Shown in pieces: positions 11,251-60,554 of a stretch of DNA of 64,000 bases; within the stretch, counting starts at the first letter, position 1; every line of letters starts with the position of its first letter. Position numbers and translations under genes: made by a program. The stretch lies in the NCBI GenBank assembly GCA_000004985.1, contig GG738897.1, one strand, 5' to 3'. The notes under the pieces are model-generated. The model was not told the origin of the DNA, ran no database searches, and was given only the letters and a program-made list of their open reading frames with translations. This DNA comes from Naegleria gruberi. Lineage: Eukaryota.

Positions 11251-11370
11251 GGCTACGGCCATATCACGATGAATGCACCTCATCCCGTCCGATTTGAGAA
11301 GTTAAGCATCGTCGAGCCACATCAGTACTGAGGTTGGAGACAACTTGGGAACCTGTGGTGCTGTAGTCTT
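11251..11370 (+). rRNA. 5S ribosomal RNA
   Basis: GGCTACGGCCATATCAC...GAAGTTAAGCATCG...AGTACTGAGGTTGGAGACAAC...GGTGCTGTAGTCT is about 120 nt. 5' and 3' ends form a 9-bp helix I by hand pairing. The RGTTAAGC loop-C box and the GGGA/AGAC elements are present. Confidence 0.9.
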
Positions 11371-11735: not shown

Positions 11736-13212
11736 ATGATATCAAATCTATGCACACAAATAATAGGAATGGAACGTGTTTTTCCAAAGTTTGCAAATGC
11801 AACCAAGTTGCACAAAACTCTCCTTCTCTCCCTTCCACATAAAGTCACTTCATTAACAAGTTCTTTGGCTGTGTTTTCAAAGCACAATGTTAATTTGATA
11901 AAGATTGAATCACGTCCTAATCGATTTGATAAGAAGGTTATTGATTTTGTTGTCAATGTTGATGAAGGAGTGAGTAAGGATATTGTTGATAGAGCCATCA
12001 AGGAAATGGTTCAAGAAAAGATTTGTGATCATGTACAATATTTGGGATTTGAAAATAAGATTCCTTGGTTCCCAACAAAGATTGCAGATATTGACCATTT
12101 CGCAAGAGAATGTCTTGAAGCTGGTGCTGTTTTGCAAGCTGATCATCCAGGTTTCCATGATCAAGGTAAGGAATTGATTTATTGACATTGTTTCTAATGT
12201 TTATCAAATCAATAGAATACAGAGATCGTAGAAAGATGATCGCAGACATTGCTTTGAATTACAAACATGGAAGTCCAATTCCACGTATTGATTACACTGA
12301 AACTGAAAATAAGACTTGGAGTATTATTTACAAGAAATTGACAGCTCTCTATCCTAAATATGCTTGCGAACAATATAACAACTTGTTCCCATTATTTGAA
12401 CAAAACTGTGGTTTCAAGGAAGATAAAATCCCACAATTACAAGATGTCAGTGACTTTTTGTTGAGCTCAACAGGTTTCAGAATTAGACCTGTCTCTGGTT
12501 TGCTCACTTCAAGAGAGTAAGTTTTCAATTTTGAAATTTTTCATCATTTAACCCAAATAGTTTCCTTAATGCTCTTGCTTTTAGAGTTTTCCACAGTACC
12601 CAATATATTAGACATCACAGTAAGCCATACTATACACCAGAACCTGATGTTGTTCACGAAATGCTTGGTCACATGCCATTATTGGCTGATTCTGATTTTG
12701 CTGAATTCTCTCAACAAATTGGTCTTGCATCTCTCGGAGCTTCCGATGAAGAAATTGACAGACTTGTTAGACTCTACTGGTACTGTCTCGAATTTGGTAT
12801 CCTCAAGGAAAACGGTTCCTTGAAGGCTTATGGTGCTGGTTTGTTAAGCTCGTTTGGTGAACTAGAATATGGTTGTTCAGGCATTGATGCAGAAACTGGA
12901 AAGAAACCAGAATATTTACCATTCGTTCCAGAAGATGCTGCTAATAGAGTTTATCCAATCACTCACTACCAACCAATCTATTATGTTGTTGAAAGCTTGG
13001 AATCATGCAAAGATTTAATTAGAAGATACGTCAACAATTCTCTCGATAGACCATTCCAACTCAAATATAATCCATACACAAGTACTGTAGATGTTTTGGA
13101 TTCTCAAGAAAAATTAATAAGCTTGACAAAAACCATTCAAAACAACATGGATCTGTTAAAGTCTTCCCTTTCAAAGATTGGTCGTTCCTATGAAATTAAC
13201 AATAAAAAATAA
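11736..13212 (+). CDS. PAH: Phenylalanine-4-hydroxylase (aromatic amino-acid hydroxylase). Exons 11736..12165, 12216..12516, 12561..13212
   Basis: The ACT regulatory domain '[15 protein letters not shown]' is followed by '[14 protein letters not shown]...ADHPGFHDQ'. A 50-bp intron (GTAAGG..AATAG) and a 44-bp intron (GTAAGT..AAATAG) restore the PAH sequences '[23 protein letters not shown]' and '[44 protein letters not shown]'. These carry the 2-His Fe-binding motif. '[10 protein letters not shown]' is also present. The start Met is uncertain; an alternative is the ATG at 11769. Confidence 0.9.
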
Positions 13213-15288
13213 AAATTTAGCTATGGAAATTAGTATACTAATTTGAATTAATTAGAGCTTTTGGCAACCAACTATAACTCAGGGTCATACGTGTTAATTT
13301 TGATGTTGTGAATTAGGCAAGCTTAACTTGCCGCCAAAAATCAACGTGTTAAGCTTTGCCGGTTGACTGTGGCCAAAAAAATTTTGGTATTACAACGGTA
13401 TTTAAAAATATTATAAAATATTAAAAAACAAAATGTCCCTACATCCAACATGATGTTGTCTACTTGAACATATTTTTCAATGGATGCTGCTGATGTTGAA
13501 CACATCCTGTCTTCAAGCTATAACATTGTTACATGTACATCTCCCATACAACATCCTAAATGTATTAATGTTGTTGTTGCTCTTGTTATAATAGACTACA
13601 ATATATATTATGAATAATACAACAATAACAGCTATAACAGTACCATAATATATTACATCATCTTTTCAAACAGGCACAACTAATGCTAGGAACATGATGT
13701 GGAGCAAACAACAACAATAGAAGATGTTTCTTGTTGTTCTTGGTTGTGATTTATCCTGTTGTTTGTTGTTCTTCCCGCCAAATATCAGGGAATTACACAT
13801 GTTGAATTCTTGAAACATTCAACGAGGAGGCAATTACATGTCATTTGTATACATATACATGTGCGGATCATATGATGATGGATAACACACATGATAACAT
13901 GCAAATTGTTTACATAACATGTTGTTGATATGTTTTGCACAACTTATTGTGGATGTGTGAAGATTTCAAAATTTGTGGATGTAATCTGACGGTTGGAAAA
14001 TGTGGAATGTTTTCAAGATGGACATTATCTAACGCATTATCATTACCACATTTATTTTTTCTTTGGATGAATAGGAAAATGTTTTTGGAATGTTGTTGAA
14101 TGTGATGAAACTAAACTAATAGTACATTCTATACAACTTTACCATGCATTGAAAACATGCATTTTCTTTTATTCTAATGCACATGCATCAATTCATAGAT
14201 TCAATTTCATTCAACCCAATTAATATCGAATCTACATCATGTACCATTCGATTCTTTCCAAACTTTCGAATAATAGTGTAAATTAAAAGTGCATTCCAAT
14301 ACAACTAGTCAGAATCCAACAAATTAGTTAGTAGCCCATCTATTCGATCTATACTTGCTGTATTAGTATATGCACATTTACAGTAACATTGCAAAACATG
14401 TACATTTGGAGTAATAAGTGGATATAAAGAATTTGTGAATTTCATGGCAAAATAAATTGGAGAAATTCAAAACATAATCACCACAACCAGAAACTGGAAA
14501 ATTCAATTGTATACAGTAACACATTATTATGATTGTTTGCTCAGTCGATATTATTCGAAATCTTTCCAATAATTAAAGAACTTAATGGTTATCCACATAC
14601 ACAACAACAACATGTATTATCGAAACATTCCCAAACACTGACACATTCCAAACAAACACCCATGACCAATAATACTTGTCCACTCAATTCTGAATATTGA
14701 GAATTTCACAACATGAAATTGTCTCTTTTAATCATGTACCAACACTTCATGGTTTTTAAAATTAAAGAAATTGCGAAAAATGTTGAAAAAATCCGCATCA
14801 ACTAAAAAGCCCCTACTTTACCAATTCACTACAATTCATCATGAATCATTACCTTGTTTAGAGTTGACCAAACCTCGTAAAGGAATGAGAACGGAAGAAA
14901 GGTCCACAACGACCAAGAAATTAGTCAAACAGGCAAGACCTCGATCAATACGTGTAGATCCCTCGTTTCGAATAAACAATCTAATAGTTTGTGTTGATTC
15001 ACAGAGTTGACTAAAGTGGCAATTGACTAGAGCAGTGGGTAAAGCTAGTGGTGGTCGCAACAGTTAATAGTTTCATCAGCATTATGTTTATTCCGCCACA
15101 AGAAGAAGTATTTTTCAAAAAAGTGTCTTTACAATAACTATTAAATATATTGCAATTGCTTGGTATTATATTATTTAATATTTCTAAACAAAAAAAACAA
15201 CACTAATCACTGCACATTAGGTAAAGGCAGTAAACAATCGCAATTTTACCATCTAAGTTTCGAATAATTGTCATCATTGGACAATAAG
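13213..15288. promoter_or_regulatory. 2.1-kb ORF-free, AT-rich intergenic block upstream of the AT-hook gene, rich in CATG-core palindromes with a 220-bp G+C-richer island (about 14840..15060)
   Basis: No ORF of at least 60 aa in the correct context. Palindromes include CAACATGATGTTG, TACATGTACAT, GCACATGCATC, ACATGTCA. There are three TGTGGA(A)TGT copies at about 13955..14030. The island carries AGAGTTGAC(C/T)AAA direct repeats. Confidence 0.3.
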
Positions 15289-17070
15289 ATGATACCCTTC
15301 TCTTCACGACCAACAACACAAACAACAACTCACATAACAACAACAACAACAACATTATCCGATCATCAGCAACATCAGCAACAGCAGCAGAATTATCCAC
15401 TGTTCTACATGTCGCAAAATATCACACCTTCTGATAATTTTCTTTCGTATAATTCCAATAATATTTCAAATATTAATATTGCTAATACTAATCAAACTAT
15501 TGCTAATACTGTTACAGCAACAGCAACAGCAACAGCAACAGTGGACAGTAACTCAAATTCTTCACCAATTCCATGCTATTACATCTTACGAGAGGAATGT
15601 GTTGGAGATTTAGAGGAAGAATTACGAAGAAGAGCAAGAGCTGTGAAAGATGTTGGACTTTCGAATAGTAATCAGTTAAGGAGAAACCTACCGCAGCAAA
15701 ATTCTATAATCAAACCTGTTATTGTTGAGAGACATGGCATCTTACCACTTTCAAATCAGGATTCTAATACTACTTTAGGTAAACTTAAAAATTATACTAA
15801 TTCCAATATAGGAATAATGATTACGACTCAAACAACATCTGAACCACTGAGTAAATCTCCTCATTATCCAATTACTCAACATGACCAGTCCGCCGTGCAA
15901 AAAGTAAATCTCCAATTGAGTAACAATCAGATTTTCCAACAACCAAACCAACAACCTTTCCAAACGCATGTTTCGAATAATACAACAATTACTAATACAA
16001 CTAGTACAACAATAGGCCCATCTCTAACTAATTTCTCACATGTTATTAATAATAATACTAATAGTACTAATACGAATCAACATGTTCTTGGAGGCATGAA
16101 TGTTTCGAATAATTCTAACGGTCAAATGCAACAAACTTCGAATGCACTTTTAGTACATACTACTAGCAGTCCTCAACAAGATGCTATTCTAAATCAAATA
16201 TTTGATGAGGAACAAGATGTGATTAAAAATAGTGAACTTGATGAGCTATTGGCAGTTGGCATGGATGACAATTCATTTCTGCAAAGTCCAACAATTAATA
16301 CCAATAATATTGGAAACATGTTTTATAGTGGAAGTAATGTAGGTGGTGCTGCCTCATCTTCTCCCTTATCACCACCAACTGTTCAAACTAATCTATTCGA
16401 AAGTAAGGTAAAGAAGGAAAAGAAGAGAGGCAAATCAGCAATGATACATGTTGAGATACCACCTCCTCTACTAGCACCCAATCAACCCACTCTTAACTCG
16501 CCCCAAAACAACTCAATTGGTGGAACACCATCCTACTCGACAACCAATAAGAAAGTCGCAAAAACATCAAAAAAGAAGAGAAAGCAATCAGCTGCTAGCT
16601 CCTCATCAATGCCATCAAGTAGCACGAGTACAAACACCAACGATCAACACTTCTTTTTTGGAAGTGGTAGTTCAACAGGTGGTAATTTACATGTTCTTCC
16701 AATGTTTCCTCCAAGCATCATGAATGGTGAAGAGGGAGGAGGACCAGATGAAGAAAGTAATGCACCACCAAGGAGAAAAAGAGGAAGACCACCAACTGTG
16801 TAAGTATTGACATTCAGTTTCTTTTCTAAATATTTTAATTTTTACAAACATGTAATATGAACAATATGCAAACATGTGATATTATTGTTTATAAACAGAC
16901 ATACGTGGAGTTTTGGTATTGGAGAGAACACCTATAATACCTTCACACGTTTCAGTAATCCATTAGAACAGGCAAATACTGTCAATTCGTATAATTCTTC
17001 TTCTTCCTCGAATTCTGATTCTGAATCTTCCAAGAAGAAAAAGAAGGAAAGTAAGAAGAAATCAAAATAA
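15289..17070 (+). CDS. Low-complexity (N/Q/T/S-rich) nuclear protein with a C-terminal AT-hook; a possible 3' exon 16899..17070 is joined by a 99-bp intron
   Basis: The true ATG is at 15289; the ORF-track start at 15268 is TTG. 'PPRRKRGRPPTV' is an AT-hook (RGRP core). The ORF stop overlaps a GTAAGT donor at 16800. An AAACAG acceptor at 16898 continues in frame into the Ser/Lys-rich ORF 16876..17070. Confidence 0.5.
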
Positions 17071-17081
17071 ATAATTATTTA

Positions 17082-18097
17082 TTATTCAATTTGAACTGAA
17101 TCACCCTTCTTTAAGAGAATGTACTCAATAATTGGAGCTGGCATCCAAGGTCTGAAATATTGAATCAAGAAACGTTCAGTATAAGGTACAATAAATAAAA
17201 AGTCTCCATTCTTTCCTTCTACATTGGTAACCATTCTGGAAACACATTCGTCAACTTCCATGAATTGTGATAAATCTCTTTTAACATTGGAGGCTGACTT
17301 GTTTTCAGTTCCAAGAGCATTGAAGTGAATTTGAGTTTTAACAAAGCCAGGACAAACAATTGAAATAGTGACCTTCTTTCCATAAATTCCCTCCTTCAAT
17401 AATTCCAATTTCAAAGCTTCATAAAATCCATGAAGAGCAAATTTGCTACTAGAATAGGCAGTTCTATAACTTGATGAAATAGTTAGAATGATTAGAATCA
17501 TCATAAAACATACCAAACACCTGATAATCCAGCAAGACTTGAAACAACACAAATAGAGCAATGAGATTCTTGCTTTTCTCTCAAATGTTTCATCAAGTAG
17601 AATGTTGGTGTGACACATCCAAAGAAATTAGTCTCCATCAAGCTTCTATGACCATCTAAATTTGTAGCTTGAGCAAACATTTGCACTGCTGATCTTCCAG
17701 CATTCAAATAAATTACATCAATTCTCTCATTTAAATATTTAGCACTCAACTCGATCAAATTTTTACATTCCTCATCAACGGAAACATCTGTCTTGACACA
17801 GAAAATCTCGTGACCCTTTCCACTATATTCCTTCAACATGATTTCCTTCAATTCTTGCAATTTCTCAACATTTCTAGCAGTTATGACAATTTTATTTCTC
17901 TTTCCGATGGTACAATAGTGTCGCAATAATTGTTCTCCAATGCCAGAGCTTGCTCCGGTGATGATAATATGTCTATTGGAGAGGCACTCTTCAGAATTGA
18001 CTCTCTTTCTCTCCTTCTCAAATTCTAAATATCTAAACACATTCAAGCCAATTACTCCAATTAAAAGCAACAAGACTCCCGCCAAATATTCGATCAT
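17082..18097 (-). CDS. Short-chain dehydrogenase/reductase (11-beta-HSD/DHRS7-like). Exons complement 17514..18097, 17082..17469
   Basis: N-terminal TM segment. Rossmann motif 'ITGASSGIGEQL', 'NAG', and catalytic 'SSLAG...YRTAYSSSK'. A 44-bp intron (GTATGT..CAAG) restores the Ser-to-Tyr spacing of 13 residues. Confidence 0.8.
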
Positions 18098-33291: not shown

Positions 33292-33902
33292 TACTAATAA
33301 ACCTACTCCTCATGCTCATCGTCAAAGCGTCCAAATTGTGTCTAATTTTCTCCCTCTTACTCCTTAATTCCTAAACATTTATAGGTATCGAAATTATATC
33401 ATCTTGAATACAACAATAAAAACCTACACTCAAACTTGGTGATCTCGATTCAGATTGTATTGGCCTTCCGAACTCACCACTATCCCCAACATTCACCTCA
33501 TCGTCATCCTCACCAATGAGACTCTTCCCATTTCTTACTGGGATGTTCCTCGTCTCTGAGGGTGAATCTCGTCCCATCATTTTTTTTGATTTTTTATGAT
33601 GGTAAAACCGTTACGCTTAGAAATAACTGGAAACACATTACCATCAACAAGCAGATATCTTGAAGGTTCCTTAAAATAGAATTGAGTATTGTTTGTTGTG
33701 AAATAAGGATATCTTATTGAGGTCTGAATAATATTGTTAATAATAAATATGATAAATAATTTAGGAAATAATTTAATGTAATGTTCTTCTCTCTCGAAAA
33801 TGTTTCAAAATGTAATTGGAATATGTGCTGATGATACATGATTTTAAAACTCAAAGTTCTATACTTTACATCTGTTAACTCGATAATCAGCCATATCTTA
33901 GC

Positions 33903-34704
33903 TCAATAAACGTAGGTTGAGTTATTGAGGACGAATCTAATATTTCTAGGACCATTGTATCCAACAAGATAATTACTGCCATCTTGAGGAGTGACAACTT
34001 GCATGGCAATAAGTACAACATCATAAATCCACTAATCCAAGTTTAAAATTTCAATTCAATAATACATACCAATAATCCAATTCCTCCAAATGTAAACATC
34101 TTGAATAATCCATAACCAACATAACCCAAATAAAATCTATCAAATCCACAGAATCCAAAGAAAATGCTCAATCCAAGAGCTGTTGAAAATGCATATCCAG
34201 TACTATAATAATATTCCAGTAAATTATTCCAGAACTAAATACCTACGTGTAAAAACATGAAATTTCTTTGTAAAATGTCTTGTCACCTGTACAATTTACA
34301 CCTTCTCTTGCATAACATTTGACTGGAACAGTATTATTGGATCTACACCCTTCAAATTCATATGTAGTGGAAGAAATAGGAGGAATGTCACAACTAAATT
34401 GAGTACCAAATAAATTATTACAAGAAGGTAAATCGTCATCATAATGAATATTGTCACTATTGGTGTCAATGACACGGAATGAATTCATATTTGAATTTGG
34501 AGAATACTTGTTGTCTTGTAAATAAACATTTGCTATTGTTGTTGACTGATCTGATGTACTTCTGACAAATGCTGCATGAATAAATTCAATAATGAATAAA
34601 TTGACAAAATACAACAGTATCACTACAGATATCAAATAATAATTTAATTTTTGTTTTGTGGATGATGATGGATGATAGTTTCTCGTGCCAGATGATGAAA
34701 ACAT
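33903..34704 (-). CDS. TM2-domain-containing protein. Exons complement 34247..34704, 34070..34202, 33903..34031
   Basis: Signal/TM N-terminus and a Cys-rich ectodomain. After a 44-bp intron (GTAGGT..TATAG) comes 'GYAFSTALGLSIFFGFCGFDRFYLGYVGYGLFKMFTFGGIGLL', the TM2 signature including DRFYLG. A 38-bp intron precedes the last exon. Confidence 0.8.
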
Positions 34705-45011: not shown

Positions 45012-47146
45012 TTACAATGATTTTTGCATCTTGTTAAGAGTTTCGTCCAATTTACAAGCAGCAGAAATAAGAGAAATGAAAGTGAACGCTTGTGGGAAAT
45101 TTCCAAGTGCAGAACCATTGAAACTCATTTCCTCCGAGTATAAATTCAAGTGATTTCCATAGGTAATCATTTGTTCAAGCATCATTCTACCTTCCTGAAG
45201 GAGATCCTTCGATTCACCATAACTACATGCTCTAGCAATTGATTCAATCAACCAGAAAGTACACAAATTGAAGGTTCCCTCCTCTCCTCCACTAAACCCA
45301 TCATCAGTTTTTTCAACCAGATATCTGTAGACAAGACTAGAGCTCACTAATCCATTTTCTTCGGGCGGCTTATTGATTGCCTTAATGGTATTGACTACGA
45401 GAGTATCGGATGGACTCAGGAAGGAAACTAATGGAATAATCAAAGTGGAAGCATCAAGTGTATCAGATCCGTAGAAACTTGTGAAGGATTCAAGTTCTCT
45501 ATTGTAACCCTTTTCGATTACTTGTTCGAATATTTGATTTCTGACTTTAATCCATTTGTCAACATCCGCTGGGAAAGATCTGGATTGTGCAATTTTTATA
45601 GCTCTATCCAAACAAACCCATGTCATGATTCTACTGTAAACAAAATGTTGTCTTCCACCTCTAACTTCCCAAACACCCTCTGCCAAATGTCATTTCTATT
45701 GAAATTCACAAAAAACTTACCATCTTTTTCATCCCAATTATTACAAACCCAATTTGTAATAAATCTCAAATGCTTCCAAAAGTCATAAGAAATTGAATTC
45801 CCATACTTGTCATAAATATACATTGAATCCATCAATTCACCATAAATATCCAATTGCAATTGATCATAGGCTCCATTTCCAATTCTAACAGGTTTAGAAT
45901 TCATATAACCAGACAAGTGATCAATAGTTCTCTCAATCAACTCATGTTCTCCATCAATACTGTACATGACCTGAAGTGGGGGTGGAGAACCCTTCTCATC
46001 TGATTGTTTGTACTTTAAATTCATTTCTGATATTCTAGCTTCCAGATATTTCACAAATTTAGTTGCTTCCTCCATGAAACCAATGCTCATGAAACTGTAG
46101 AGTGTGAAGGAGGCATCTCTAATCCAAGTGAATCTGTAATCCCAATTTCTCACCCCACCAATGCCTTCAGGAAGTGATGTGGAGGCAGCTGCTAGAATGG
46201 CACCTGTCTTTTCATAGGTTAAAAGCTTGAGAGCTAGTGCACTTCTTTTCACTTGTTCTCTCCATCTGCCTTTATAGGTACATTTTTGAAGCCAATCATG
46301 CCAATAATCGAGAGTTTCATTGAGCATTTCTTCACCATATTGAGTAATTGTCTTGGAACCAAAGATGGATGATAGTTCTTGCTCTGGACAAGTCAAAGCA
46401 TCGTCGAATGTACCAAATACGAAAGTTACACTTTCATCTTCCTCAATGGTAAATTCGCATTCAACACAATTACCAGTCATTGAATCAACGTATGGATCCA
46501 TCATACACATGGATTGTCTTCTGACAGTTGGGGATAGAGTATTCGATTGAGTATTTACACCATTCACAATTGGAATGATTGGTAAAACTGGAATAATCTT
46601 GAGAATTGGCTTACTACAATACAATGTAGCGTGTTCACAATTGATACTACTCTCTGGAATGTTCAATGGATTCATTGGATTATAAAATGGTTTAAAGAAT
46701 GCTTTTTTACCATGAGCTCCAATTTTACATTCATGCAAATCACTTGCATAATTAAAGGATGGACAGCAACTAACCTTAAATGTCATGGATCCATGGATAC
46801 AGTTAACTTTTCTAATAAGAAAGTTTGTACAAGGCCTCTTTTCAGAAACTGGCATAAAATCAATCAATTCACCAATTCCATGCTTGGACATGAATCTTGT
46901 AATGAGAATATTTGTATCAGGCCAATAATGTTGTTTAGTTTTTGTGTAATTCATAGCACGAATTGAGAAACTTCCACCCTTTCTACAATCGAGAATTCGT
47001 CCAAAAACACTTGAAGAATTGAATTGTGGATAACACATCCAGTCAATTGTGCCTTCGGTTCCAACCAATGCACAAGTTTCCATATTTCCAATCATTCCAT
47101 GAGAATCTATTGGAAGATAATCGATTCGTTGTGCTGGAGAGGACAT
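45012..47146 (-). CDS. Glycoside hydrolase family 15 (glucoamylase/trehalase-like), intracellular. Exons complement 45721..47146, 45012..45679
   Basis: 'DYLPIDSHGMIGNMETCALVGTEGTIDWMCYPQFNSSSVFGRILD' (GH15 N-domain). 'GGVRNWDYRFTWIRDASFTLYSF' (catalytic region). A 41-bp intron (45680..45720, GTAAGT..GGCAG) joins to 'EGVWEVRGGRQHFVYSRIMTWVCLDRA'. There is no signal peptide. Confidence 0.8.
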
Positions 47147-59327: not shown

Positions 59328-60554
59328 TTATTTAACAATATTAAATTTTGAAATTTTCTTAGCTAGATATGTTGATAAAAAGTTTAATCCCTTCACTGTA
59401 ATGATTATCTCAATTTCGAATTTTCTTAATTTCATACTTTGCAATTCATCTCTGACATGATCTAGTTCTTTTCTTTTGATGGAATCCTTGATATGACGAT
59501 CAATAAGATTAATTTCTCTTTGAGATATTGGCTGATTGTAATAATGTGGAATGTCCTTAACATCTTCGTAATTCATTCCAAGCCATTGAAGTCTATCTTT
59601 GAGTGCTGACTCTTGTTGAACTTTGTGTCTACTCATTTCAACACTTCCATACTTGTATGTACTCATAATTTGATATCCAAAAATATTGAAATCACATAAA
59701 GCATATAATCTAGCATTTGGAAATCTAGTAGAAACATGTTTCACAACATAACGAGTCACAATCGATGGATATCCACATCCAGTAATCAACAAACAATTCC
59801 TAACAAGTTTGAAAATCTTATCTTCCACAAGTCTTCTAAATATTGCATCTTTCTCAATAATTAACACAGTGTCCACATTTCCAAAATAATCAATTGAGGG
59901 AAAATCTCCTGGAATGCTTTCCACTGAGGCCTGTTTGTTTCCATTAAGCGATAACAAGCTATTTCCTCTTCCATCATTGCTGTAAATAAATCCCTTACTC
60001 ATGCAAATGATATTCAATAAGGATCTGTCAACCTTCAACACATCACCAACAGTTGACAAACATCTATTACATTGAATTTGATCCCTGAATGTAGTAACAT
60101 TCATATAAAACAATTCTCTCTGAGTAATCTTCTTCCTACAATTCAACAGTAAATGAACATCCTTCATCAACAGCCAAACAAGATGATTCTTCTTAAGATG
60201 ATTATTTTTCAAACTCTTCTTCTCAAATGTTCCACTTTTTGATTTAATTATTTGATGAAGCCTTTCTCCATTAGACTGATTCGAATCCCTTGTTCCGAAT
60301 GAATAATTTAAAATCAAATCTTGTCCATTCTTTTCATCATTCTCAATCAATTTAAATAGAAACTCCAAAACATATGATTCAATCAATGATATAATCTCCT
60401 CATTCGGTAGTAAATAGTGAATCTCACACATCTTTTCAATATCAAACAAGTTTAATTCATCTTCCATATCATCTTCATTCTCCTCCAAAACAAGCCTTGT
60501 TGCATTTTCAGACAAGCCTTGTTCCTCATCCTCAGCATCGTTCTCATGATTCAT
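59328..60554 (-). CDS. SPO11: SPO11 / topoisomerase VI subunit A homologue (meiotic DSB transesterase)
   Basis: 5Y-CAP motif 'TQRELFYMNVTTFRDQ' carries the catalytic Tyr (compare yeast 'TVRDIFYSNVELFQRQ'). Toprim 'VLIIEKDAIFRRL' supplies the Glu, and 'ITGCGYPSIVTRYVV' is present. The Toprim acidic motif reads 'CDFNIFG', D-x-N instead of D-x-D-P. Confidence 0.8.
   Translation of the reverse strand: MNHENDAEDEEQGLSENATRLVLEENEDDMEDELNLFDIEKMCEIHYLLPNEEIISLIESYVLEFLFKLIENDEKNGQDLILNYSFGTRDSNQSNGERLHQIIKSKSGTFEKKSLKNNHLKKNHLVWLLMKDVHLLLNCRKKITQRELFYMNVTTFRDQIQCNRCLSTVGDVLKVDRSLLNIICMSKGFIYSNDGRGNSLLSLNGNKQASVESIPGDFPSIDYFGNVDTVLIIEKDAIFRRLVEDKIFKLVRNCLLITGCGYPSIVTRYVVKHVSTRFPNARLYALCDFNIFGYQIMSTYKYGSVEMSRHKVQQESALKDRLQWLGMNYEDVKDIPHYYNQPISQREINLIDRHIKDSIKRKELDHVRDELQSMKLRKFEIEIIITVKGLNFLSTYLAKKISKFNIVK

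Follow-up and report, generated by a model that had tools for sequence, protein, structure and literature searches.

An AT-hook gene preceded by a long ORF-free spacer

Multi-kilobase upstream control regions are known from Candida albicans WOR1 and EFG1 and from developmental genes of Dictyostelium. Cryptically simple sequence, slippage-derived DNA with a biased use of short words, is known from animal regulatory and non-coding DNA. The locus described here, an intergenic spacer of Naegleria gruberi NEG-M, resembles the fungal and Dictyostelium regions in being an unusually long gene-free 5' region in a dense genome. It occupies positions 13213..15288 of a 64-kb window (the whole stretch of DNA analysed), is single-copy in that window, holds no credible ORF, and lies between a PAH-like gene upstream and NAEGRDRAFT_81214 downstream. 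We read it as a putative extended promoter or upstream control region of NAEGRDRAFT_81214, composed of cryptically simple DNA and small motif clusters, a reading that we rate at about an even chance. The spacer is most likely ordinary in kind, and we see no hint that it hides a gene, an RNA or a mobile element.

The last exon and stop codon of the PAH-like gene lie at 12561..13212 on the + strand, with intron boundaries taken from the sequence. Pfam (Biopterin_H, E=1.3e-63) and PDB matches to PAH and TH identify its product as a biopterin-dependent aromatic amino-acid hydroxylase. A search with this exon returned no close orthologue on record in other Naegleria species, and its matches in metagenomes were solely distant or on very short contigs. 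A perfect 18-bp palindrome, AAATTAGTATACTAATTT (13227..13244), is found 15 bp past the stop codon and probably sits in the 3' flank of this gene; since about 0.7 palindromes of this length are expected per 64 kb by our own estimate, it is not significant when taken alone.

NAEGRDRAFT_81214, on the + strand, consists of exon 1 (15289..16799), an intron with GTAAGT...ACAG boundaries (16800..16898) that carries two copies of CAAACATGT(A/G)ATAT, and exon 2 with the stop codon (16899..17070). After splicing, the model matches XP_002672483.1 with 100% identity, and the published start is the ATG at 15289, with the spacer directly upstream on the same strand. The gene encodes an uncharacterised, low-complexity “predicted protein” of 560 aa with one AT-hook, RKRGRPP, close to its C-terminus, as expected from a previous reading of the sequence without database searches (the sequence-only reading). 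Two protein searches matched only the protein's own cluster, with no detectable homologue, and a literature search with the gene ID gave nothing usable.

We defined an ORF-free gap as a stretch outside any stop-free frame of at least 110 codons. By this measure, the gap at 13210-15267 (2058 bp) is the longest in the 64-kb window, the next being 936 bp, which bears out the “ORF desert” of the sequence-only reading. Its estimate that genes elsewhere are 50-600 bp apart was slightly too narrow, as the 21 remaining gaps span 102-936 bp. The N. gruberi genome paper reportedly gives each gene an average of roughly 1 kb of non-coding sequence, and the 2-kb spacer may thus be only a mild outlier genome-wide.

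In ORF length, codon bias, + strand splice donors and homology, the spacer resembles neither a protein-coding gene nor a pseudogene. Its longest ORF encodes 79 aa, and none of its ten longest ORFs was present by exact look-up in a 15-billion-protein collection that does contain the N. gruberi protein neighbouring the spacer. A six-frame Pfam scan at E<=1 found no domain (the lone match, E=0.87, was irrelevant). The best window in a coding-potential scan based on codon bias scored 7.5, in the low tail of real coding sequence (mean 13.7), and the + strand contains zero GTAAG or GTATG donors and no exon chain.

A distal block of alternating purines and pyrimidines

The spacer contains 21 CATG words in 2076 bp, or 10.1/kb, where the window as a whole has 3.4/kb and its remaining non-coding DNA about 2/kb. 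This roughly fivefold excess over other non-coding DNA agrees with the CATG enrichment that had been claimed, and 20 of the 21 words fall in one distal block (13440..14750) of ACATG-rich, cryptically simple DNA in which purines and pyrimidines alternate. The most enriched 5-mer in the spacer is ACATG/CATGT (23 observed vs 4.4 expected, p=3e-10). ACATG itself occurs 14 times against 5.8 in dinucleotide-preserving shuffles, a count reached by 1 of 1000 shuffles.

The description of these words as CATG-core palindromes stood up less well. Palindromes with arms of at least 4 are mildly more frequent than elsewhere (34 vs 24.2 +/- 4.9 per tile), but from an arm length of 5 upwards they are no more frequent than background. 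Among the examples given, CAACATGATGTTG is no CATG-core palindrome but an inverted repeat of 6 nt with a G at its centre, and GCACATGCATC is non-palindromic. Alternating words such as ACATG, TGTATACA and CACAT are abundant throughout 13.44-14.75 kb, and the fraction of purine/pyrimidine alternation reaches 0.597 per 500 bp in the distal block, where the window averages 0.447 +/- 0.023. In the whole spacer, 14 alternating runs are 8 nt or longer, vs 2.7 +/- 2.2 per equal-sized tile, the longest perfect alternation being TGTATACATATACATGTGCG (13846..13865, 20 nt). The framing as CATG palindromes is thus better replaced by alternating purine/pyrimidine cryptic simplicity, of which the palindromes are a symptom. 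Motifs in such regions should therefore be judged against a background that takes composition into account.

Word clusters and composition towards the start codon

Within the distal block, three copies of TGTGGA(A)TGT on the + strand (13948..14010), already counted in the sequence-only reading, begin at 13948, 13974 and 14001 and form a candidate homotypic binding-site cluster. They are spaced by 26 and 27 bp, the spacers between them are mutually unrelated, and Tandem Repeats Finder did not report them as a tandem array. The expected count of such triples is 1.7e-4; across the 64 kb, both strands yield seven matches, three in the triple and four elsewhere. The exact word TTTCGAATAA occurs four times in the spacer, at 14264-14273 (+), 14551-14560 (-), 14966-14975 (+) and 15258-15267 (+), and the window's two remaining copies both fall within the coding sequence downstream and are translated there as VSNN. 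Markov models generated a 10-mer of multiplicity 4 in 2 of 300 runs at first order and in 14 of 300 at third order. Clustering beyond chance, as in homotypic clusters, was therefore found for ACATG, the TGTGGA(A)TGT triple and TTTCGAATAA. In addition, the spacer holds six CATTCC/GGAATG words, three in each orientation, mostly as ACATTCC(A/C)AA or TGGAATGTT.

Should these clusters be functional, the candidate words, ACATGT, TGTGGA(A)TGT, the ACATTCC type and TTTCGAATAAT, would offer entry points to transcriptional control in Naegleria. We know of no Naegleria factor that binds any of them, and a literature search for Naegleria promoter motifs found no cis-regulatory element for this genome.

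Closer to the start codon, a G+C-richer block at 14840..15060 has a GC content of 0.412, compared with 0.306 in the rest of the spacer. The island noticed from the sequence alone is thus real, but it is modest: elsewhere in the non-coding DNA, about 2% of windows of 221 bp have a GC content of 0.40 or more. The AGAGTTGAC(C/T)AAA direct repeats described within it exist as two copies, AGAGTTGACCAAA at 14860 and AGAGTTGACTAAA at 15003, but they carry no weight, since by our own estimate chance alone should give about five such pairs (13-mers, one mismatch) per 2 kb. The block is probably a proximal promoter module. It is followed on the + strand by a very A+T-rich tract (15100..15200, GC 0.18), 90-190 bp upstream of the ATG, which we infer from its composition to be the probable core-promoter zone.

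Comparison with a second strain

We compared the locus with a single close environmental strain, L001, which is 98% identical. The proximal 599 bp of the spacer carry one substitution, whereas 1550 bp of intergenic DNA from elsewhere carry 20 (Fisher p=0.009, or p=0.085 once clustered substitutions are merged), and the G+C island is nearly invariant. In the distal 452 bp compared, part of the CATG-rich DNA, there are eight substitutions, an ordinary intergenic rate (p=0.49), and there is therefore no sign of constraint there.

Slippage-type indels separate L001 from the reference in the neighbouring coding sequence and intron. For example, a 17-bp deletion in the NAEGRDRAFT_81214 intron drops one of the two ACATGT-bearing CAAACATGT(A/G)ATAT units, which shows that such units are gained or lost through local duplication or slippage. 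In a more distant strain (86% nucleotide identity), just 62 bp past the PAH stop codon were available, and these were unalignable.

An extended promoter as the best reading

That the spacer is an extended promoter is suggested by elimination, by position and by a weak signal of conservation over the 600 bp nearest the gene. No other ORF-free gap in the window is as long, and the spacer lies directly upstream of a published ATG on the same strand and contains three words that cluster beyond chance. Its proximal 599 bp carry the single substitution described above, and the alternatives have left no trace. The reading is also supported by the organisation of transcription in Heterolobosea, including Naegleria, in which each gene reportedly keeps its own intergenic promoter and transcription factors are present in a normal complement (bioRxiv 10.64898/2026.07.29.740908). 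The proposal of a long promoter or enhancer for the AT-hook gene thus survives as the best account, while the label “developmental” found no support. A scan for bacterial promoters and terminators, irrelevant for a eukaryote, returned shuffle-level results in the spacer.

Under this reading, approximately the first 200 bp of the spacer would be the 3' flank of the PAH gene. The block at 13.44-14.75 kb would be cryptically simple alternating DNA that slippage and minor local duplications probably produced, an origin that would explain its many ACATG and CATG words. The TGTGGA(A)TGT triple, the ACATTCC-type words and TTTCGAATAA, which lie in or just past this block, could be factor-binding sites. 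The G+C-richer DNA at 14.84-15.10 kb would serve as a proximal module and the A+T-rich tract at 15.10-15.20 kb as the probable core promoter, followed by a presumptive short 5' UTR that would extend to the ATG at 15289.

As it stands, the finding matters little beyond placing a long uncharacterised upstream region on record. Transcriptional control in Heterolobosea is nevertheless of interest because these organisms are gene-by-gene-regulated relatives of the polycistronic trypanosomatids.

Alternative explanations

The most serious rival, which we consider possible but rather unlikely, is that the spacer is functionless: the distal 1.3 kb would be neutral DNA produced by slippage and duplication, the promoter would be confined to the last 150-450 bp, and the word clusters would be by-products of composition. 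Consistent with this, the distal part diverges from L001 at the ordinary intergenic rate, and the strains differ by slippage-type indels in the adjoining coding sequence and intron. Moreover, the over-represented words in the spacer are almost all of the alternating purine/pyrimidine or CAA/TTG type, which points to composition rather than to one specific site, and by our own estimate of expectation its short dispersed repeats are mostly at chance level. However, the regular spacing of the TGTGGA(A)TGT triple across unrelated spacers is hard to obtain from composition alone, ACATG exceeds its frequency in shuffles that preserve dinucleotides, and useless DNA tends to vanish from compact genomes.

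We regard as improbable that the spacer encodes an unannotated non-coding RNA, such as a lncRNA, a lineage-specific snoRNA or another small RNA, for instance in the G+C island, where the sequence-only reading had placed a possible Pol II or Pol III transcript. The near-invariance between strains of the proximal 600 bp, island included, would fit such an RNA, and Rfam would miss lineage-specific families. However, the searches lent the idea no support. At gathering score, Rfam 15 found nothing in the spacer, its sole match in the 64-kb window being 5S rRNA at 11251-11369. When the threshold was relaxed to E<=10 over 13000-15500, only sub-threshold matches appeared, the best being Afu_335 (25.6 bits vs a gathering score of 50), with none inside 14840-15060. 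ARAGORN detected no tRNA anywhere in the window. Compared with dinucleotide-preserving shuffles, the island (14835-15085) showed no extra folding stability on either strand (z = +0.78, +1.03), nor did a G+C patch at 13262-13392 give a signal (z = -1.34, -1.47). A simple scan for C/D snoRNAs, whose C box (RUGAUGA) and D box (CUGA) should lie 55-110 nt apart and be closed by a terminal stem, offered one weak C/D-box-like arrangement at 13872-13989, which is unconvincing, with an over-long 118 nt between the boxes and a stem of just 4 bp.

The spacer has neither the cloverleaf nor the ordered A and B boxes of a tRNA gene or tRNA-derived SINE. By eye, TAGAGCAGTGG at 15029 resembles an A box and GTTTCGAAT at 14965 a B box, but on the + strand their order is wrong.

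A bolder version of the regulatory reading, to which we give little credence, holds that the 1.3-kb ACATG(T)-dense alternating block and the TGTGGA(A)TGT triplet form a genuine distal regulatory element for a lineage-specific AT-hook regulator, acting like an enhancer or organising chromatin. Such an element might be read by a putative dimeric factor that recognises a palindromic ACATGT core, or marked by CATG adenine methylation. It would then be among the first defined heterolobosean cis-regulatory modules.

Less probable still is a relic, whether of a gene that has decayed, of exons no longer in use, of a tandem duplicate of the AT-hook gene or of a mobile element. The AT-hook coding sequence does share more short words with the spacer than any other tile does, both 10-mers (50 vs 25.3 +/- 7.9 per 1.5-kb tile) and 11-mers (23 vs 8.0 +/- 4.1), and the window has no TTTCGAATAA copy outside the spacer and that coding sequence, which together hold all six. 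An ORF at 14533-14700 would also encode a Q/T/H/N-rich peptide similar in flavour to the AT-hook protein. However, a tblastn search of the spacer with this protein gave a best E of about 2, and blastn recovered shared short words only. The empty Pfam scan, the low coding score and the lack of + strand GTAAG or GTATG donors also argue against a relic.

The decayed mobile element suggested by the sequence-only reading likewise proved unsupported. A repeat search of the spacer found no long terminal or inverted repeats, the longest inverted arms being 24-31 nt with 71-92% complementarity, which is chance level by our own estimate. BLASTN against the 64-kb window revealed no second copy, and Tandem Repeats Finder reported small arrays only. 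The six-frame Pfam scan of the spacer showed no transposase or reverse-transcriptase remnant.

Finally, we considered an epigenetic target, in which dense palindromic CATG would be the preferred substrate of the ApT-specific adenine methyltransferase AMT1. In species that encode AMT1, methylation is highest at C/G-AT-C/G sites, of which CATG is one, and N. gruberi has 6mA at ApT sites, detectable in only about 644 genes (PMC12695648). Although CATG is enriched in spacer, intron and coding sequence alike, we find this explanation barely credible and rejected it because CATG alone among the C/G-AT-C/G words is enriched (GATC 1.9 vs 2.8/kb, CATC 6.7 vs 6.3, GATG 6.3 vs 5.5, all at or near background, with the C/G-AT-C/G total within about 2 sd of window tiles). 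NAEGRDRAFT_81214 is absent from the stored supplementary files of the 6mA study, and 6mA in the species studied marks expressed genes near their starts rather than upstream spacers (PMC12695648).

Comparison with known systems

The spacer can be set against four kinds of described DNA. Its 14 alternating runs of 8 nt and longer, up to 20 nt, recall Z-DNA-prone tracts; however, A/T steps abound in these runs in place of (CG)n or long (CA)n, and alternating runs of this kind are poor Z-DNA formers. The spacer also resembles the MCAT/GTIIC elements bound by TEA/ATTS (TEAD) factors in holding six CATTCC/GGAATG words, a likeness already pointed out in the sequence-only reading. This is a match of words only, and the CATTCC words here also belong to a generally enriched ACAT family; a literature search for a TEA-domain protein in Naegleria found nothing.

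Similar to the control regions of WOR1/EFG1 and of Dictyostelium genes, the spacer has repeated words in clusters and precedes a gene whose product probably acts in the nucleus or binds DNA, although it is much shorter (2.1 kb), its gene is an orphan, and it is known from sequence alone. In comparison with cryptically simple DNA, the bias in the spacer takes the form of purine/pyrimidine alternation, with no long pure microsatellite, but as in such DNA a family of short words (ACAT, CATG, CACA, TACA and ACAACA) is over-represented, and the two Naegleria strains differ by short-unit indel polymorphism.

An ORF-free spacer between two genes on the same strand

Position, elimination and a weak constraint signal point to the spacer at 13213-15288 as the extended promoter or upstream region of the AT-hook gene NAEGRDRAFT_81214, the likeliest reading, to which we give an even chance. 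Upstream, a biopterin-dependent aromatic amino-acid hydroxylase gene (PAH-like, 11736-13212, + strand, identified by homology) ends at base 13212. Since both flanking genes are on the + strand, the spacer must hold the 3′ end of the PAH-like gene and the promoter of the AT-hook gene. The sequence-only reading had called this region an ORF desert, and indeed 13210-15267 (2058 bp) is the window's longest stretch not spanned by any stop-free frame of 110 codons or more, the remaining 21 such gaps measuring 102-936 bp. In the second-longest of these gaps, 33310-34245 (936 bp), lies the one other patch of G+C-rich non-coding DNA in the window, with GC 0.416 near 33450. The longest ORF in the spacer is 79 aa, and none of the ten longest was found in a 15-billion-protein collection in which a neighbouring N. 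gruberi protein is present. Six-frame translations of the spacer matched no Pfam family, its best codon-bias windows scored 5-7.5 where coding sequence averages 13.7, and its + strand carries zero GTAAG or GTATG donors; the window, eukaryotic in character, has 32% G+C and short introns of the GTAAGT...AG type.

N. fowleri, N. lovaniensis and Willaertia have no close orthologue of the PAH-like gene in the protein database, where the next best matches were ~60% identical; copies with 86% nucleotide identity occur on two metagenome contigs (L006 and L007). The phosphoglycerate kinase (PGK) gene at 35.8-37.0 kb, 20 kb from the spacer, shows 90% identity to Naegleria fowleri and N. lovaniensis and 85% to Willaertia magna. 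That the PAH-like gene has no close Naegleria or Willaertia orthologue while PGK has such 85-90% ones suggests lineage-specific retention or acquisition. A dispersed, full-length 5S rRNA gene (11251-11369, +, Rfam 105 bits), followed by a T run, is a solitary copy flanked by an F-box gene and the PAH-like gene. A Spo11/Top6A-type gene with TP6A_N and Toprim domains lies at 59328-60554 (-); its presence helped to exclude a dictyostelid source, Spo11 not being known from that group. An 18-bp perfect palindrome, AAATTAGTATACTAATTT (13227-13244), begins 15 bp past the PAH stop codon; after it, 13250-13400 is richer in G+C (GC about 0.40) and contains a GGCAAG/CTTGCC hairpin, though folding z-scores there are not significant.

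The downstream gene comprises exon 1 (15289-16799, +), a 99-nt intron (16800-16898, from splice boundaries) and exon 2 (16899-17070). The 560-aa spliced product is 100% identical to XP_002672483.1, an N. gruberi "predicted protein", and the public gene model likewise starts at the ATG at 15289. This match identifies the window as N. gruberi NEG-M. This N/Q/T/S-rich, low-complexity protein has a single canonical AT-hook (PPRRKRGRPP), a basic stretch resembling a nuclear localisation signal and no Pfam domain. Neither a word-indexed search nor a complete phmmer scan over 1.84 billion representative proteins returned anything beyond its own cluster; by homology, it is a true orphan.

The distal spacer is cryptically simple DNA

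CATG is enriched in the spacer, as the sequence-only reading had noticed, with 21 occurrences (10.1/kb) against 3.4/kb in the window and ~2/kb in other non-coding segments. Palindromes in general are denser than in the window by just ~2 s.d., and two of the three "perfect palindromes" quoted in that reading are no perfect palindromes. The only other local CATG peak besides the AT-hook locus, ten in 1 kb at 46001-47000, falls in a glycoside hydrolase family 15/trehalase-like coding sequence. An unbiased count ranked ACATG/CATGT as the top 5-mer (23 observed, 4.4 expected; p=3e-10), and ACATG exceeded dinucleotide-preserving shuffles (14 vs 5.8), 1 in 1000 of which matched it. Among the ten 4-mers with the strongest enrichment, six (ACAT, CATG, CACA, TATA, TACA and CGCA) strictly alternate purine and pyrimidine. 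Alternating steps make up 0.529 of the region, peaking at 0.597 in 13500-13999, against 0.447 ± 0.023 in equal-sized tiles, and 14 alternating runs reach 8 nt or more, where a tile has 2.7 ± 2.2; the longest is TGTATACATATACATGTGCG (13846-13865). Both measures equal or approach the highest values in the window, themselves set by tiles overlapping the spacer. Together with a second enriched word family, ACAACA/TGTTGT, the alternating words mark 13.44-14.75 kb as cryptically simple DNA, of which the CATG "palindromes" are one symptom. The original observation is mostly right, but a better description is cryptic simplicity of the purine/pyrimidine-alternating kind, together with a few motif clusters.

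One such cluster, TGTGGA(A)TGT, was correctly reported in three copies (13948, 13974 and 14001), with just four more matches on both strands of the 64 kb and a chance expectation of ~2e-4 for the triple. The sequences between the copies are unrelated, so the triple is not a recent tandem duplication. The direct-repeat pair AGAGTTGACYAAA that had been singled out in the G+C island is, by our own estimate, at chance level. Word sharing extends into the AT-hook gene: 15 of the 34 ACATGT copies in the window lie within 13531-16877, two of them in the intron and six in coding sequence, where they spell recurrent His-Val dipeptides as CAT-GTx codons. The window's six exact copies of TTTCGAATAA are all confined to 14264-16112, four of them in the spacer and two encoding VSNN. 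The AT-hook coding tile has the most 10- and 11-mers in common with the spacer of any window tile (z about 3-3.7); the protein and the spacer have no alignable similarity.

Strain comparison

The sole informative relative came from environmental metagenome contigs (ENA ERZ929261, run ERR1078381, project PRJEB11402), 98-99% identical to the window. These contigs, L001 (covering 14238-18061) and L008 (34261-40469), represent a second strain alongside N. gruberi NEG-M, usable for polymorphism analysis. L001 differs by 8 substitutions in 452 bp of distal spacer (14238-14689) and 1 in 599 bp of proximal spacer (14690-15288), with a 5-bp deletion in the former and a 3-bp insertion in the latter; other intergenic DNA has 20 in 1550 bp across the contigs, and coding DNA in L008 has 23 in 4639 bp. 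The proximal spacer, which includes the G+C island and an A+T-rich tract, has accumulated fewer changes than the other intergenic segments (Fisher p=0.009; p=0.085 when clustered changes are merged). In a more distant relative, 86% identical in nucleotides in the PAH exon, just 62 bp follow the stop, and they did not align.

The CATG-rich distal spacer, compared with L001 only, shows no deficit of changes relative to the other intergenic segments (p=0.49). The main rival explanation, which we regard as rather unlikely, treats the distal block as slippage-derived spacer with no function and confines function to the last few hundred bases. In the AT-hook gene's intron, L001 lacks one of two CAAACATGT(A/G)ATAT units through a 17-bp deletion, direct evidence that units of this kind come and go by local duplication or slippage; the intron has 4 more substitutions in its 99 nt. 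The gene itself is evolving fast, since 4 non-synonymous against 4 synonymous changes and three in-frame indels separate it from its counterpart in the 98%-identical strain.

Alternatives and proposed organization

Three further readings gained no positive support. The G+C island (14840-15060) is real but modest: its GC is 0.412, that of the remaining region 0.306, and GC 0.40 is reached by 2% of windows of its size elsewhere in the non-coding DNA. The sequence-only reading had offered it as a possible non-coding RNA, and an unannotated transcript in the spacer is improbable: no Rfam family reached threshold in the region, the weak matches at E<=10 all fell outside the island, no tRNA was found in the window, and a box C/D scan of the region gave one unconvincing candidate. 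The island and a second G+C patch (13262-13392) folded no better than shuffles on either strand. A decayed gene or element is more improbable still, and the mobile-element relic also proposed found no backing from Pfam, from terminal repeats of note in the spacer or from a second copy within the 64-kb window. Least probable is a CATG-directed adenine-methylation target, considered because, in species encoding the ApT-specific adenine methyltransferase AMT1, C/G-AT-C/G sites are reported to be the best methylated, with 6mA on only about 644 genes in N. gruberi (PMC12695648), and weakened by the lack of GATC, CATC or GATG enrichment in the spacer.

The promoter option is the one of the original three that survives. 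As an extended promoter, the spacer would begin with the 3′ flank of the PAH gene, followed by the 1.3-kb cryptically simple distal block, whose small word clusters may be binding sites. Next would come a proximal module richer in G+C, then an A+T-rich core zone (GC 0.18 at 15100-15199) and, last, a short leader up to the ATG of NAEGRDRAFT_81214. Heterolobosea are reported to retain intergenic promoters specific to each gene, as well as some 100 genes for transcription factors (bioRxiv 10.64898/2026.07.29.740908), so a long upstream region is plausible in kind. The spacer is ordinary in kind: an uncharacterised long upstream region.
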